Positions 36,794-42,220 of a DNA stretch of 64,000 nucleotides are shown here, one piece after another. The notes beneath the pieces are model-generated. The model searched no databases. It saw only the letters and a program-made list of their open reading frames with translations, and was not told the origin of the DNA. This DNA is from an uncultured Pseudoalteromonadaceae bacterium. GTDB lineage: Bacteria > Pseudomonadota > Gammaproteobacteria > Enterobacterales > Alteromonadaceae. The position numbers were made by a program, and so were the translations under genes. Numbering within the stretch: position 1 is the first letter of the stretch; each line of letters opens with the position of its first letter. Where the stretch lies: NCBI GenBank assembly GCA_964640795.1, contig CAZXIN010000003.1, forward strand, positions 60,262-124,261, in the 5' to 3' direction.

Positions 36794-37168
36794 ATGGGGT
36801 TTTTAGATGGTTTGATTGGTAACGCGTCTGAAGTCAGTGTTGATGAGGTAGCTGAGGAGTTCGCACCCATTTTGGGTGAGGGTGAAAGCTTGCAACAAGT
36901 GTTTAAAGAAATACGCGACATGTATTTGTTTACCAATTACAGGCTAATATTGGTGGACAAACAAGGCTTGACAGGTAAGAAGGTAGATTATCATTCCATT
37001 CCTTATCGAGCGATCACGAACTTTATTGTTGAAACCGCTGGCCATTTTGACTTGGACGCTGAGTTGAAGTTATGGATTTCCGGCAGAGATGAGCCGATTG
37101 AGAAAGAGCTAAAGAAAGGTTCTGTTATCGGAATTCAGAAGACATTAGCGACTTGGATGTTTAATTAA
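36794..37168 (+). CDS. Bacterial PH-domain protein
   Basis: IRDMYLFTNYRLILVDKQGLTGKKVDYHSIPY...ETAGHFDLDAELKLW. Confidence 0.9.
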   Translation: MGFLDGLIGNASEVSVDEVAEEFAPILGEGESLQQVFKEIRDMYLFTNYRLILVDKQGLTGKKVDYHSIPYRAITNFIVETAGHFDLDAELKLWISGRDEPIEKELKKGSVIGIQKTLATWMFN

Positions 37169-37235: not shown

Positions 37236-37685
37236 TTAGCGTCGCCTTACTGTGAAACCTTTTCCTTTAGGTTGCCTAAGATCGACAACGACAGGTTTGC
37301 CACCAAAACCGTGCTGATTGCACTTGGCACGAACAACGACTTGCGTAAGCTCATCTGGAATATTAATACCACATTGGCTACGAGTGAAGGGTTGTTCATT
37401 GTCGTGGGGGTGGGCGAGCGGTCGCTCACCGAGTTGATTACCATTAAGGTCGGTGACTTCCCAACCATCAGCATAGTGCCCCCAACTTTGATCATTATGC
37501 CGTACGCTCGTATGGAAACACCAGCTTGTATCATTTCGCTGGACGGCTTTTACTCTAATAACTTGCGCGTAATCTAAAGACGTTGAGAAGCTTTCGACAT
37601 CAAATTCAGTTGCCGAGAGTGTGAATGGAAGGAAGGTTAATATGAGGAGTGCTCTCACTTTCATTAACTTCATATTATTTACCAA
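37236..37685 (-). CDS. Conserved exported hypothetical protein with His/Cys motifs
   Basis: Signal peptide; HND..WGHYADGW, LAHPHDNEQPFTRS, RAKCNQHG. Confidence 0.8.
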   Translation of the reverse strand: MVNNMKLMKVRALLILTFLPFTLSATEFDVESFSTSLDYAQVIRVKAVQRNDTSWCFHTSVRHNDQSWGHYADGWEVTDLNGNQLGERPLAHPHDNEQPFTRSQCGINIPDELTQVVVRAKCNQHGFGGKPVVVDLRQPKGKGFTVRRR

Positions 37686-37697
37686 CGCCTTAGATGA

Positions 37698-38045
37698 TCA
37701 GTTATACGCTTTATTAGATGTTAAGTTAGCTAAGCCTTTTATAATTTTATAGACAGACCAAATCCAAACACCAAGCAGAATGAAGTAGCCGATAAAAATG
37801 ACGAATAAAATAGTCCCTATAATTGATAGACCAAAGCCCCACCAGAATGTTTTGACAATATTGGTGTAATGATCTTCGAAAAGAGTACCCGCAGCGTCAT
37901 CTTTTTTTACCATGGCCCATATGGCACCTATAATCCAAAATATCCCAGTGAATAAGCCGAGTACCATTAAGCCGTAGGCAATAAGAGCATTTGTTTTGGC
38001 GATGTCATCTTTTGCCGAAAGCGTGACTGTTTGTGGGTCTGACAT
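37698..38045 (-). CDS. DUF4870-like membrane protein
   Basis: IAYGL...GAIWAMVKKDDA...HY....TFWW...WSVYKIIKGL. Confidence 0.8.
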   Translation of the reverse strand: MSDPQTVTLSAKDDIAKTNALIAYGLMVLGLFTGIFWIIGAIWAMVKKDDAAGTLFEDHYTNIVKTFWWGFGLSIIGTILFVIFIGYFILLGVWIWSVYKIIKGLANLTSNKAYN

Positions 38046-38264
38046 AGTCTTCCTCTGTTGTTATTTGATCCAGTCAATTTAAGGTTAACAGGGACAATGA
38101 CAGAATGAAAAACAAAACTTGCTTCTCCGATGAGTGTATATGGTTTTGAATTGGCAGTAGAAACAAATCAACCTTAGGTTGGCATAAACCGAAGCTTGGC
38201 TTAAAGGATAGGACATCATAATGTCACTAAAATGAGTGGGCTTTCTTCAATACGTTGAGGTTAA

Positions 38265-38891
38265 TCAACAGGCCTTAGCAGATGACATCAGTCCAAGCGA
38301 GCGTTTCTCTAAGTCTTCAAAAAAGGCCATCCATTCCTCAGTACCATCTTCGTGTTTATGAATCATATGAGGGGCATTGATAAAATGAATGCCAAGTGTT
38401 TGCCACTTTGCATAAGTTTCTTGGATATCTTGCACCTTTAAGTACAGTATCGATTCTGATGGATTAACTTGCTCGCTTTCAGAAAGCATTATCCGTGTAC
38501 CGTCTATTTCAAAGAATGCCAGTTTGTCAAAGGTGTATAGATGTTTTAATTGAAGCACCTCTTTATACCATTTTTCTGAGGCTTCTATATTTTTAACACT
38601 TCTAGCAATTTGTCCTAGGCTGATCACTGGGTTTGTATTCGACATGATACTTTGTCCTCTTGTTATTGAGCTATCAATAGGCGCGCCATGCCAATGTTTA
38701 AGCGCTTTTTTATTCTCTAAACCAAGCTTGGCGATAGCATTCGCAACGTGATATTTCACGCCGTCCAAACTGATTTTTTCTAACGTCGCTATCTCTTGAT
38801 TCTTTAGGCCATGTCTAACAGCATTGACGATACGCCATTCGGATGGCGTTAATCGATCATTGTGTGGCGGTCGTCCGCGAGGCTTCTTCAT
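38265..38891 (-). CDS. LuxR-type HTH fused to a VOC/glyoxalase domain
   Basis: LTPSEWRIVNAVRHGLKNQEIA...VKYHVANAIAKLG, then LGQIARSVKNIEASEKWY...MAFFEDLEKRSLGLM. Confidence 0.85.
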   Translation of the reverse strand: MKKPRGRPPHNDRLTPSEWRIVNAVRHGLKNQEIATLEKISLDGVKYHVANAIAKLGLENKKALKHWHGAPIDSSITRGQSIMSNTNPVISLGQIARSVKNIEASEKWYKEVLQLKHLYTFDKLAFFEIDGTRIMLSESEQVNPSESILYLKVQDIQETYAKWQTLGIHFINAPHMIHKHEDGTEEWMAFFEDLEKRSLGLMSSAKAC

Positions 38892-38990
38892 AACGTTAAT
38901 TTACAATGTTAAAGCAGTATTTTCCCTCCCCTTTTTGTAAAAAGAGTGAGTTAGTGCATTATTGATACAACAGTATCTATTGAGAAAAAG

Positions 38991-39830
38991 ATGAAAAAGC
39001 TAATAAAAACACTTGTTATGGCAATACTGCTTGGGAGTTGTTTATCGGCCAATGCCGAGAGCGATTATTCGATTCAGGCAATATCTTTTGGTGATGTGAA
39101 AGGCGTGAACCGAAGCTTCTTTGTTGAAGGTGAAAGAGGTGAAGATAAGATTGATATCCCTTTCGTCATTTGGCTACTGAAGAATGATGAAAGGACCGTT
39201 CTGTTTGATGCAGGTTATTTTAGAGAAAGTTGGCTCAAACAATGGAATACTCAAAACTTTGTATCCCCTGACAAAGTGACTGAAAAGGCTGGTGTTACTG
39301 CTGAAGAAGTGACAGACATTATCGTCAGTCACATGCATTGGGATCATGCTCAAGGTGCGTTGCTGTTCCCGAATGCTAACGTATGGGTTCAGGAAGAAGA
39401 GTACACCTATTATACGGGTGAAGCTTGGCAAGAAGGTGGAAATGCTGGTGGGATTGATAAAAGGGATGTGGCAGGTTTTGTACAGCTAAACCTGGATGGA
39501 CGTCTTAAGTTTATTAAAGGAGACAATGTTGAGGTTTTACCAGGCATAACAGCTTATACCGGTGGTAAGCATACTTTCCAGTCTCAGTACATCAAGGTGG
39601 ATGGCAAAGAACCTATCGTGCTGGCATCTGACAACGCCTATTTATTTCAAAACATAGAAACACAAACACCCATTAACAGTAATGCTACCTTTTCTGTTGA
39701 GTCTAATCGAGCAGCGATAAAGCGAATGATTCAATTAGCTGGTGATGTTAGTCGTGTTTTGCCGGGGCATGACCCTCTTATCTTTACGCGTTATCCAGTA
39801 GAAAACAATGTCGCGACTATTAGGGAGTAG
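38991..39830 (+). CDS. Exported N-acyl-homoserine lactonase-like metallo-hydrolase (AiiA/AttM type)
   Basis: Signal peptide; SHMHWDHAQG, GKHT..SQ, LASDNAYL, LPGHDP. Confidence 0.82.
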   Translation: MKKLIKTLVMAILLGSCLSANAESDYSIQAISFGDVKGVNRSFFVEGERGEDKIDIPFVIWLLKNDERTVLFDAGYFRESWLKQWNTQNFVSPDKVTEKAGVTAEEVTDIIVSHMHWDHAQGALLFPNANVWVQEEEYTYYTGEAWQEGGNAGGIDKRDVAGFVQLNLDGRLKFIKGDNVEVLPGITAYTGGKHTFQSQYIKVDGKEPIVLASDNAYLFQNIETQTPINSNATFSVESNRAAIKRMIQLAGDVSRVLPGHDPLIFTRYPVENNVATIRE

Positions 39831-39877: not shown

Positions 39878-39907
39878 AAGGCTTTAGATGATGTTATCTA
39901 AAGCCTT
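39878..39907. terminator. Hairpin between convergent genes (probable terminator)
   Basis: 12-bp stem AAGGCTTTAGAT/ATCTAAAGCCTT, 6-nt loop. Confidence 0.55.
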
Positions 39908-39922
39908 GCTTAGGTTTATTGA

Positions 39923-42220
39923 CTACTTGTTTTCTAAGTTTCGATCAAAGAAATTTGTGATGGTGTGATATAAGTGAATCCCAGTTTGCTTACCACGAAT
40001 ACTATGCTTCTTACCAGGGTAATCCATTGTCTCGAATGGGATAGCTAAGTCTTGTAGGTGTTTGTACAGCTTGGTACTGTTTTTAAATAAAACGTTATCA
40101 TCAGCCATGCCATGATAAATCAATAAAGCGCCGGTCAAATCTTTGGCATAAGGGAATACCGAAGATGCTTCATACTGTTCTGCATTCTTGCCTGGGTGCC
40201 CCATATAACGTTCGGTGTAGTGTGTGTCGTACAGCGACCAATCTGTCACAGGTGCGCCAGCCACTCCGGCTTTGAAATACTCTCCAGCTTTAAACATTGC
40301 CATAAGTGTCATGTAGCCACCGTAACTATGTCCATGTACACCAATACGTTCTTTGTCAACATAGGGGAGGGTATGTAAGAATTTAACGCCCGACACTTGG
40401 TCTTTCACTTCAATATCGCCCATTTGTTCAAAGATTGGGTCTTCGAAAGCTTTGCCTCGGTTATAAGAACCACGGTTATCGACGGTGAAGACAACATAGC
40501 CTTTGTCAACCCAGTGTTGCAACAACAAGCCTCGATTGCCTGCCCAGCGGTTGGTTACTAGCTGGGCATGAGGTCCACCATATTGAAAAACAATTGCCGG
40601 GTGTTTTCCGTTAATGACTTTCGGTGTATATAAACGGTAATGCAGTGTGGCACCGTCGTTCGTTTTGATTGTTCCAAACTTTGGTGCAACCCATTGCTCT
40701 TGATAGGCGTGCAGTGGGTGGGATTCGTCAATTTGGTTTTCTTCAAGCCATGTCAGCTGATCGCCCAAACTACTGTGTAAACTGACCTGAAGCGGTGTAT
40801 TCGCAGTAGAGAAGCTGTCAACATAAACAGTTGCATCTTTACTGAACACGATATCGTGGAAACCACTACGTTGACTAATGCGTGCGACATTGTTGTTGCT
40901 CAATGTATTACTGGCTTCATAGGAGACACTGTATAAATGGCTTTCGATAGGTGTATCTTTCCTACCAGTGAAATAGACGGTTTTTTTCTTCTCGTCTATC
41001 GCTTCAATTTCATCAACAACCCAGTCGCCGTCAGTTAGCTGTTGTACAAGCTCACCATTATTTTTAAATAGATAAAGGTGCTTAAAGCCGCTTCTTTCTG
41101 AAGCCCAGATAAAGTGCTTTTTGTCTTTCAGAAAGCGAAGGTCTTCGTTCAGGTTGACCCAAGTATTGCTAGACTCACTGAGGATAAGTGACTGTTTTTT
41201 GCTTTTTGAATCATAAAGTCGTAACTCAAGTTCTTGCTGGCTTCTGTTTTGCCATTGGTAAGTTAGTCCGATGTTGTCTTTTTTCCAATTCACACGAGCT
41301 AGGTAGATATCTTTGTTCTCGCCTAAATCCACCCAGTCTATTTGTTTATTTTTTAACGTCATAACGGCTAATTCAACAGACACATTGTTAGTGCCTGTGC
41401 TTGGATAGCGCTGCTTAATAAGTTCAATAGATTCAGCGTAGATTTCTGTGCGTGTAATTTCGTCGACAGGGCTTTCGTCTACTTTGGTAAAAGCAATTTT
41501 CGATTCATCAGGAGACCACCAGTATCCAGTGAGTCTTTTCATTTCTTCTTGAGCGACGAATTCGGCCATACCAAATTTGATAGTGCCACCGCCACCTTGC
41601 GTGAGTTGTTGTTCTTTACCGTTTTTAACATCCATAATGTAAAGGTTTTGATCACGAATGTAGGATATAAAGTTTCCTTTCGGGGAGAAGCGAATATCTG
41701 TCTCGAATGCTTCGGTTTTTAGCAGTTGCTTAGCATTCTTATCGCCAAGGTTGTATACGTAGGCGTCTCCGGCTAAAGGAAATAATAAACTTTGGCCGTC
41801 GGCAGACCAGAAGTACTCTAAAATACCCGTACCATAGACTCGTTGACGTTCTCTTCTAGCTTTCTCTTCATCAGATAAGGCTTCAGGGCCTGAGTGTAAG
41901 TCATCTGAATCAAAAAGAATGGTTGTTTTACCGCTCTCAACTTCGTATTGCCACAAATCGTAACGGTCAAAGTCTGTCGATTTCCCCTGTAAGAAGGTGA
42001 CACGTTTACCATCCGGCGATACTTTAAGTGAGCGAGGTGCTGTGCCTTGAAGAGCAGGTGATGAATGAATGCGCTCTATCGTGAGCTTTTCGGATGCATG
42101 ATCTGCTAATGCTGAGGAAGACAGCCCCCCGAATAAGCTCAATGTCATTGAGCTTATTGCAATGAGGTAAGGAAACGAGATATTTTTCATTATTATGCGT
42201 ATTCTGTGACTACAAAGCAT
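39923..42220 (-). CDS. Dipeptidyl peptidase IV (S9B) family peptidase (likely start 42190)
   Basis: DPPIV propeller (EFVAQEEM...GYWWSPD), GHSYGG nucleophile, HGMADDNV, KKH. Confidence 0.95.
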   Translation of the reverse strand: MLCSHRIRIIMKNISFPYLIAISSMTLSLFGGLSSSALADHASEKLTIERIHSSPALQGTAPRSLKVSPDGKRVTFLQGKSTDFDRYDLWQYEVESGKTTILFDSDDLHSGPEALSDEEKARRERQRVYGTGILEYFWSADGQSLLFPLAGDAYVYNLGDKNAKQLLKTEAFETDIRFSPKGNFISYIRDQNLYIMDVKNGKEQQLTQGGGGTIKFGMAEFVAQEEMKRLTGYWWSPDESKIAFTKVDESPVDEITRTEIYAESIELIKQRYPSTGTNNVSVELAVMTLKNKQIDWVDLGENKDIYLARVNWKKDNIGLTYQWQNRSQQELELRLYDSKSKKQSLILSESSNTWVNLNEDLRFLKDKKHFIWASERSGFKHLYLFKNNGELVQQLTDGDWVVDEIEAIDEKKKTVYFTGRKDTPIESHLYSVSYEASNTLSNNNVARISQRSGFHDIVFSKDATVYVDSFSTANTPLQVSLHSSLGDQLTWLEENQIDESHPLHAYQEQWVAPKFGTIKTNDGATLHYRLYTPKVINGKHPAIVFQYGGPHAQLVTNRWAGNRGLLLQHWVDKGYVVFTVDNRGSYNRGKAFEDPIFEQMGDIEVKDQVSGVKFLHTLPYVDKERIGVHGHSYGGYMTLMAMFKAGEYFKAGVAGAPVTDWSLYDTHYTERYMGHPGKNAEQYEASSVFPYAKDLTGALLIYHGMADDNVLFKNSTKLYKHLQDLAIPFETMDYPGKKHSIRGKQTGIHLYHTITNFFDRNLENK

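Follow-up and report, generated by a model that had tools for sequence, protein, structure and literature searches.

TipA is an autoregulated single-gene system in which two start codons are used and a ligand-sequestering short form predominates (PMC7762955). The present study concerns a gene of comparable logic in a 64,000-nucleotide stretch of DNA (hereafter, the window) from an uncultured Pseudoalteromonadaceae bacterium (GenBank assembly GCA_964640795.1, contig CAZXIN010000003.1, positions 60,262 to 124,261 of the forward strand). This gene, at positions 38265 to 38891 of the window on the minus strand, encodes a 208-aa protein composed of an RGRP arm, a LuxR/GerE-type helix-turn-helix (HTH), a linker, and a VOC domain. 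Next to it, in divergent orientation, lies a gene for an exported lactonase-like hydrolase (38991 to 39830, plus strand). On the basis of sequence comparison, from which all the functional claims below are drawn, the LuxR-VOC gene is probably a self-contained, autoregulated, two-isoform gene of a widespread family, following the TipAL/TipAS logic. A literature search for LuxR-VOC fusions turned up no publication.

TipAL/TipAS of Streptomyces lividans and the other members of the TipA class (e.g., SkgA and AlbA-like proteins) carry, as the LuxR-VOC gene does, an N-terminal HTH and a C-terminal ligand domain in one gene. Long and short forms and control of the own promoter, as in TipA, are predicted for the LuxR-VOC gene from its conserved cis-signals. 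The resemblance is one of gene logic only. TipA is built from a MerR HTH, a coiled coil, and a TipAS domain (PF07739), and its palindromic operator lies between -35 and -10, whereas the LuxR-VOC gene combines a LuxR/GerE HTH and RGRP arm with a VOC domain, has a single asymmetric box at -35, and is predicted to give a leaderless mRNA. Neither a MerR (PF00376/PF13411) nor a TipAS match was found in the regulator with Pfam.

Each half of the protein also has described relatives. The LuxR/GerE regulators (GerE, the NarL/FixJ output domains, and LuxR/TraR/CviR) share the four-helix HTH, and GerE- and LuxR-type activators bind at or overlap -35. In contrast to these, the HTH of the present protein is N-terminal rather than C-terminal, a receiver or autoinducer-binding domain is missing (only the GerE and Glyoxalase domains were matched, and PF03472 was not), and the putative site has no dyad. 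The small VOC proteins (FosA/FosB/FosX, glyoxalase I, BLMA, ZbmA, and TnmS1) are single-domain detoxifiers or sequesterers of small molecules and share the paired beta-alpha-beta-beta-beta fold. The VOC domain of the regulator differs from them in its low identity (at most 22%), in the replacement of the FosB ligands, and in an invariant motif of its own.

An earlier, sequence-only reading of this locus described one open reading frame (ORF) that fuses an N-terminal LuxR HTH to a complete VOC domain, as a one-component-type regulator of reversed, HTH-first architecture. Both the fusion and the domain order hold. Pfam matched the GerE/LuxR HTH (PF00196, E 6e-8; aa 13-65, 38697 to 38855, minus strand) with 32.6 bits against a cut-off of 23.5, and the Glyoxalase/VOC domain (PF00903; aa 92-174) with 32.7 bits against a cut-off of 20.6. 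The AlphaFold2 model agrees (mean predicted local distance difference test score, pLDDT, 85), with a flexible N-terminal arm and a low-confidence linker. In the model, the HTH has four helices of the GerE type (residues 16-26, 31-37, 42-56, and 61-65), and its profile matches in the PDB were the DNA-binding domains of VraR, NarL, and CviR. The modeled VOC part has eight strands and two helices (aa 94-206), and Pfam and the model together place this domain of the glyoxalase/bleomycin-resistance fold at aa 92-206 (38274 to 38618, minus strand).

A database search with the regulator returned 3,595 matches, and the top 120 all carried PF00196 together with PF00903, at 55-82% identity. Since there are thousands of matches and the top 120 are all two-domain proteins, the fusion is not a chance ORF. 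Relatives occur in at least 580 species-representative genomes, ranging over the Gamma- and Alphaproteobacteria, Burkholderiales, Myxococcota, Chloroflexota, and Acidobacteriota. Both domains carry invariant residues in the family alignment. Ahead of the HTH, the basic, AT-hook-like N-terminal arm KKPRGRPP (aa 2-9, 38865 to 38888, minus strand) keeps G6, R7, and P8 invariant in 24 homologues, with an arm pLDDT of about 60. The AT_hook profile (PF02178) scored 14 bits in the window protein against a cut-off of 17.4 and found no match in two homologues.

With Foldseek, the VOC domain matched FosB/FosA/FosX, glyoxalase I, integron-cassette VOC proteins, and the antibiotic binders TnmS1 and ZbmA, and the probability reached 1.00 for FosB and glyoxalase I. 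However, FosA/FosB-type NCBIfam models scored only 18-28 bits against cut-offs of 171-295. In the profile alignment, the FosB metal triad H7/H66/E115 falls on Q94, I148, and G200 of the regulator; the VOC domain is therefore not a Fos-type enzyme. The family has instead the invariant motif PHMIHKHxDGxEEWMAFF. Stand-alone VOC homologues were observed in Gram-positive bacteria. One of them (L173, NZ_CP072877.1 370602-371012) is 47% identical to the VOC half and lies on a 465-kb Microbacterium plasmid, where it adjoins an IS5 transposase; the domain may have had such a protein as its ancestor before the fusion.

The family comparison bears most directly on a second product. The sequence-only reading had noted that an internal methionine (MSNTNPV) could start a VOC-only protein, and this turned out to be its best-supported part, strongly backed by the conservation of the signals concerned. 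In the window, the internal in-frame ATG (Met83; 38643 to 38645, minus strand) is preceded by a Shine-Dalgarno (SD)-like AGAGGA in the linker coding region (38655 to 38660), 9 nt upstream. The predicted short form is VOC only and 126 aa long (38265 to 38645, minus strand). At the alignment column of Met83, a start codon is present in 76 of 82 loci (61 ATG, 14 GTG, and 1 TTG), against an in-frame background of 6.9%. An SD core (GGAG, GAGG, or AGGA) lies at -17 to -5 of this start in 68 of the 82, compared with a background of 10% within these genes. Anti-SD duplexes have a mean energy of -7.2 kcal/mol at the internal start, -3.0 kcal/mol in the background, and -2.5 kcal/mol at the first start. 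Loci from metagenomes independently gave the same picture (start codon in 64/69, SD in 59/69).

The amino acid residues encoded over the SD vary among loci (QE, KE, GE, RR, RS, KD), and the GGAG nucleotides are kept. Even in GC-rich genomes GGAG is retained, via the normally rare arginine codons AGG and AGA. Varying residues over a constant GGAG argue for selection acting on the RNA and not on the protein. The predicted short products are 123-131 aa long across the family. Public annotation is split along the same line: the same kind of locus is recorded either as a 208-aa LuxR-type regulator or, from the internal SD/ATG, as a 124-134-aa 'VOC family protein'. Examples are the database entry P0321, which is 100% identical to L090:1772-2173, as well as P0324 and P0317, which correspond approximately to loci L089 and L070.

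The second conserved signal lies upstream of the first start codon. When the upstream regions of 81 loci were aligned on the start codon and a logo was built, a 14-nt box, GGG[G/T]AGGG[A/T]AA[A/T]TC, emerged with 0.9-2.0 bits per position. It is asymmetric, with a G-rich half followed by an A/T tract. Its core is perfect in 78 of the 81 genome loci, and it stands 40-41 nt from the ATG in 68 of them. It occupies the -35 position and is separated by 14 unconserved nucleotides from a -10 element whose logo reads T(75/81) A(72/81) n n A(52/81) T(70/81) at a constant offset, followed by 6 nt and the ATG. Among the metagenome loci, the exact box is present in 68 of 75, and the -10 stands at the same offset in 65 of these 68. 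In the window, the box GGGGAGGGAAAATA, a putative operator of the long form, is at 38918 to 38931 (minus strand), about -40 to -27 of the predicted transcription start, and the -10 hexamer TAAATT is at 38898 to 38903 (minus strand), 6 nt upstream of the long-form ATG. The proteins of box-bearing loci are only 50-60% identical and the nucleotides flanking the box are random, so the box has been kept by selection and not by recent descent.

The first start codon is almost devoid of an SD, with a strong anti-SD duplex in 6% of loci, vs. 71% at the internal start. Since the -10 ends 6 nt before this SD-less ATG, a leaderless transcript is expected. Five loci (L023, L024, L055, L009, and L079) were seen to have GTG instead of ATG at the apparently leaderless first start, which would be unusual for leaderless translation.

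The box is also singular in its hosts. In a position weight matrix scan of the organism's own 5.3-Mb genome, the regulator's box ranked first with 21.2 bits, and the next match, with 18.1 bits, breaks an invariant position. Of eight genomes scanned, seven (G000-G002 and G062-G065) contain the exact box a single time. In the remaining one (G061) there is one extra copy, which no -10 follows and which seems to be within a coding sequence. One-mismatch matches in the two other genomes of the genus were no commoner than those to a reversed control pattern, and regulon sites beyond chance were found neither in the own genome nor in seven others. A second box of at least 10 bits within 120 nt upstream was found in direct orientation in none of 130 promoters and in inverted orientation in one. 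In six Steroidobacteraceae loci (L015, L031, L035, L038, L057, and L062), the main box is preceded at 20-35 nt by a weak partial repeat of itself in direct orientation (GGGAAAAATTCG-like); these copies score below 10 bits and are lineage-specific, not general. The inheritance of the box along with the gene in different phyla, its uniqueness in each host, and its exact phase with the -10 of that gene are most simply explained if the box is the binding site of the gene's own product.

By this comparison, the gene travels alone and brings a promoter of its own, made up of the box in place of a -35, a 14-nt spacer, TAnnAT, 6 nt, and an ATG without an SD. In the model that we propose, two proteins would be made from it: a scarce long form with arm, HTH, and VOC domain, and a more abundant VOC-only short form. 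The leaderless first start would keep the long form scarce. The long form could bind the box as a single HTH, i.e., as a monomer, with the HTH reading GGGGAGGG and the RGRP arm reading the A/T tract in the minor groove, and would thereby autoregulate its own promoter. The fixed phasing with the -10 and the missing -35 hexamer would favor activation, as with monomeric activators whose binding overlaps -35. A small molecule may be bound by the VOC domain, and the short form would bind or detoxify the same molecule. Incidental co-control of the lactonase through the shared intergenic region is possible in this genome.

Several observations weigh against this model or parts of it. Putative binding of the box by the gene's own HTH is deduced from the co-inheritance of the box and its uniqueness per genome. 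When the varying positions of the box (4, with G/T; 9 and 12, with A/T) were compared with HTH residues, the best HTH column (residue 32, R with G) gave a mutual information of 0.38, no better than the 0.43 for VOC columns, which set the phylogenetic background; phylogeny confounds this comparison. Leaderless mRNAs are uncommon in Gammaproteobacteria, and internal SD-like sequences could be pause sites instead of initiation sites. The canonical Fos/glyoxalase metal ligands are unconserved in the VOC domain, a putative enzyme or binder. Finally, the regulator and the lactonase lie within 3 kb of each other in all three genomes of the window's genus and in none of 58 relatives, which leaves room for a local functional link.

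That link, in its strongest form, would make the LuxR-VOC protein a dedicated sensor for the divergent lactonase, with the VOC ligand switching 38991-39830 via an operator in the 99-bp region and thus controlling periplasmic degradation of N-acyl homoserine lactones (AHLs) or other lactones. The sequence-only reading had likewise assigned control of the lactonase to the regulator. The genes are indeed divergent and only 99 bp apart, and the one high-affinity box of the genome lies in the shared region, 60 nt upstream of the lactonase ATG. In addition, a search of 61 genomes (G000 and 60 relatives) found the two genes together in the window's genus only, in 3/3 of its genomes and in none of the 58 others; they are adjacent in two of the three, with a gap of 119 bp in the second of these, and 2.7 kb apart in the third. 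However, the pairing does not extend to the family. We sought the hydrolase within 4-6 kb of regulator relatives (6 kb for genome loci) in the 80 best genome loci and in an independent set of 80 metagenome loci, and it was absent from 79 of the former and from all of the latter, i.e., it was found in 0 of 159 loci outside the genus. The divergent pair is thus not conserved. The sole genome locus holding both genes is that of the genus relative Alteromonadaceae bacterium M269, where a 772-aa DPP-IV gene lies in between and the lactonase has no box upstream. Moreover, conservation of the intergenic region within the genus is confined to the half next to the regulator; the lactonase-proximal half is not conserved even between the two genomes with adjacent pairs, and the box is phased with the regulator's own -10 and ATG and not with any neighbor. 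A dedicated sensor therefore seems unlikely to us, and the comparison did not support the claim of lactonase control; by its distribution, the lactonase beside the regulator is probably a lineage-specific local neighbor and not the family-defining target. Nor does another gene take its place. The largest cluster of neighboring ORFs covers 10 of the 80 genome loci, and the recurrent neighbors are unrelated genes (ribosomal proteins S12/S7, GumN, an ABC transporter, DUF1800/1501, and a serine beta-lactamase-family protein). In the absence of a conserved neighbor, guilt by association yields no function for the regulator.

A plainer explanation would keep the regulator and drop the second product: a single-product factor with targets in trans, whose internal SD/ATG is a relic of a stand-alone VOC gene or a pause site, whose box is an autorepressor operator, and whose regulon consists of weaker sites. 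Stand-alone VOC homologues such as the 47% identical one of the Microbacterium plasmid do exist, so the internal start may descend from a gene start; autorepression is the commonest arrangement among bacterial regulators; and near-matches to the box of up to 18 bits are present in the own genome. Yet a relic would not retain an SD and a start codon in 83-93% of loci from different phyla when the linker residues vary, the near-matches are no commoner than those to the reversed control pattern, and an operator that merely overlaps a promoter needs no exact 14-nt spacing to the -10. We regard this explanation as distinctly unlikely. Highly improbable, in our judgment, is that the box is read by another factor, such as an alternative sigma factor or a host protein, or acts as RNA in a leadered transcript. 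The GGAGG inside the box does resemble a Shine-Dalgarno sequence, and a sigma-70-like match upstream (minus strand, 38986-38958) could give a leadered transcript, although such matches are weak evidence, with 2 found vs. 3.7 expected by chance. But one third of the loci have GGGTAGGG, which destroys the SD core, and 40 nt separate the box from the ATG. Many sites per genome, furthermore, would be expected of a sigma or global factor, whereas the box is unique, and it accompanies the gene through different phyla irrespective of the host.

The hydrolase gene itself (38991 to 39830, plus strand) encodes a 279-aa Lactamase_B protein (Pfam) with the N-terminal export signal MKKLIKTLVMAILLGSCLSANA (aa 1-22, 38991 to 39056), in which a signal peptidase I site ANA|ES or a lipobox LLGS|C17 can be read from the sequence. 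Each of the 25 homologues in the alignment begins with a hydrophobic signal peptide. Clear lipoboxes were seen in two homologues (P0124 and P0125), and most of the others are without one. One database entry (P0121, 270 aa) begins at Met10, which would truncate the signal. The residue set H114, H116, D118, H119, H194, D214, Y217, and H260 is invariant in the 25 homologues, including the HMHWDH metal-binding motif (H114-H119; 39330 to 39347, plus strand), and the D..Y pair matches D191/Y194 of AiiA in the alignment. Thus, the hydrolase shares the complete HxHxDH...H...D..Y...H set with the AHL lactonases of the metallo-beta-lactamase (MBL) fold (8X78, AiiA, AiiB/AttM, GcL, AaL, AhlX, and the secreted MomL type). 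It differs from them in falling below every named NCBIfam equivalog cut-off. Its nearest models are the AHL lactonases AiiA, AidB, and AttM, all of them far from the threshold (best 62.4 bits vs. 375 for AiiA), and it belongs to none of the named equivalogs AiiA, AidB, AttM, AhlS, and YtnP.

By sequence, the best solved relative of the hydrolase is 8X78 (E 1e-25, with AiiA at about 1e-9), which its depositors titled a Pseudomonas poae enzyme, an N-acyl homoserine lactone lactonase. The hydrolase model (pLDDT 85) superposes on 8X78 with a Z score of 31 and a root-mean-square deviation of 2.3 Å over 253 residues at 29% identity. The next structural matches, GcL, AaL, AiiB, AiiA, AhlX, and 4-pyridoxolactonase, have Z scores of 22-24, and 19 of the 20 structural matches after 8X78 are quorum-quenching lactonases or 4-pyridoxolactonase. 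Among AHL lactonases, secreted forms are known. The earlier description of an exported AHL-lactonase-like enzyme is a fair one, given the signal peptides of all homologues and the modeled similarity to the P. poae enzyme, and from sequence and model we predict an exported dinuclear-metal lactonase of the AHL-lactonase clade. Autoinducer-binding LuxR (PF03472) was not found in the own genome, which is 94.9% complete, and an E. coli control was positive. LuxI family members were not found in it either, although this search was uninformative, as the control genomes also gave no match. As neither LuxI nor an autoinducer-binding LuxR was seen in the genome, any AHL target of the enzyme would come from outside the cell.

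The remaining features of the locus are as follows. The divergent intergenic region shared by the two genes spans 99 bp (38892 to 38990), as the sequence-only reading had it in placing a signal-bearing HxHxDH lactonase-type enzyme at this distance on the other strand. A consensus scan placed a terminator-like hairpin at 38169 to 38181 (minus strand), 84 nt past the stop codon of the regulator, consistent with a monocistronic gene, and another at 39878 to 39907 (plus strand), 3' of the hydrolase gene and before the convergent DPP-IV gene. The G+C content of the regulator gene (0.41) and of the hydrolase gene (0.42), set against the window mean of 0.41, gives no compositional sign of recent transfer for either. 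The convergent gene at 39923-42220 (minus strand) encodes an exported 765-aa DPP-IV/S9 prolyl peptidase. The regulator, lactonase, and DPP-IV genes are reshuffled within the genus, as in M269 the DPP-IV gene sits between the other two. Downstream of the regulator are genes for a membrane protein of 115 aa that weakly matches Yip1 (37698-38045, minus strand), an exported 149-aa protein without a family match (37236-37685, minus strand), and a bacterial PH-domain protein (bPH_1, E 7e-47; 36794-37168, plus strand). The order of these three genes is the same in M269.

Beyond the two-isoform gene proposed here, we tentatively consider a wider reading of the LuxR-VOC family, which we regard as possible rather than probable. 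The family may be a portable, host-independent, single-gene sense-and-neutralize module, in which a sigma-region-4-like monomeric HTH with an AT-hook arm would act on a unique 14-nt surrogate -35 box of a leaderless promoter and, once the VOC domain has its ligand, would switch on its own gene. Through internal initiation, an excess of the VOC-only product would follow and neutralize the ligand. Such a module would have converged on the TipA design, and hundreds of species, from Pseudomonadota to Chloroflexota and Acidobacteriota, would carry it.

For the window, the comparison warns against taking the lactonase as the target of the regulator merely from its divergent placement. If the two-isoform reading is true, thousands of genes now labeled 'LuxR C-terminal-related regulator' or 'VOC family protein' would belong to one two-product system with one invariant operator working across phyla, and a systematic split in annotation would be corrected. 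The family would provide a second, unrelated case of the TipA design principle, as well as a compact orthogonal promoter-regulator pair. It would also point to a widespread small-molecule stress that is handled by the VOC domain.

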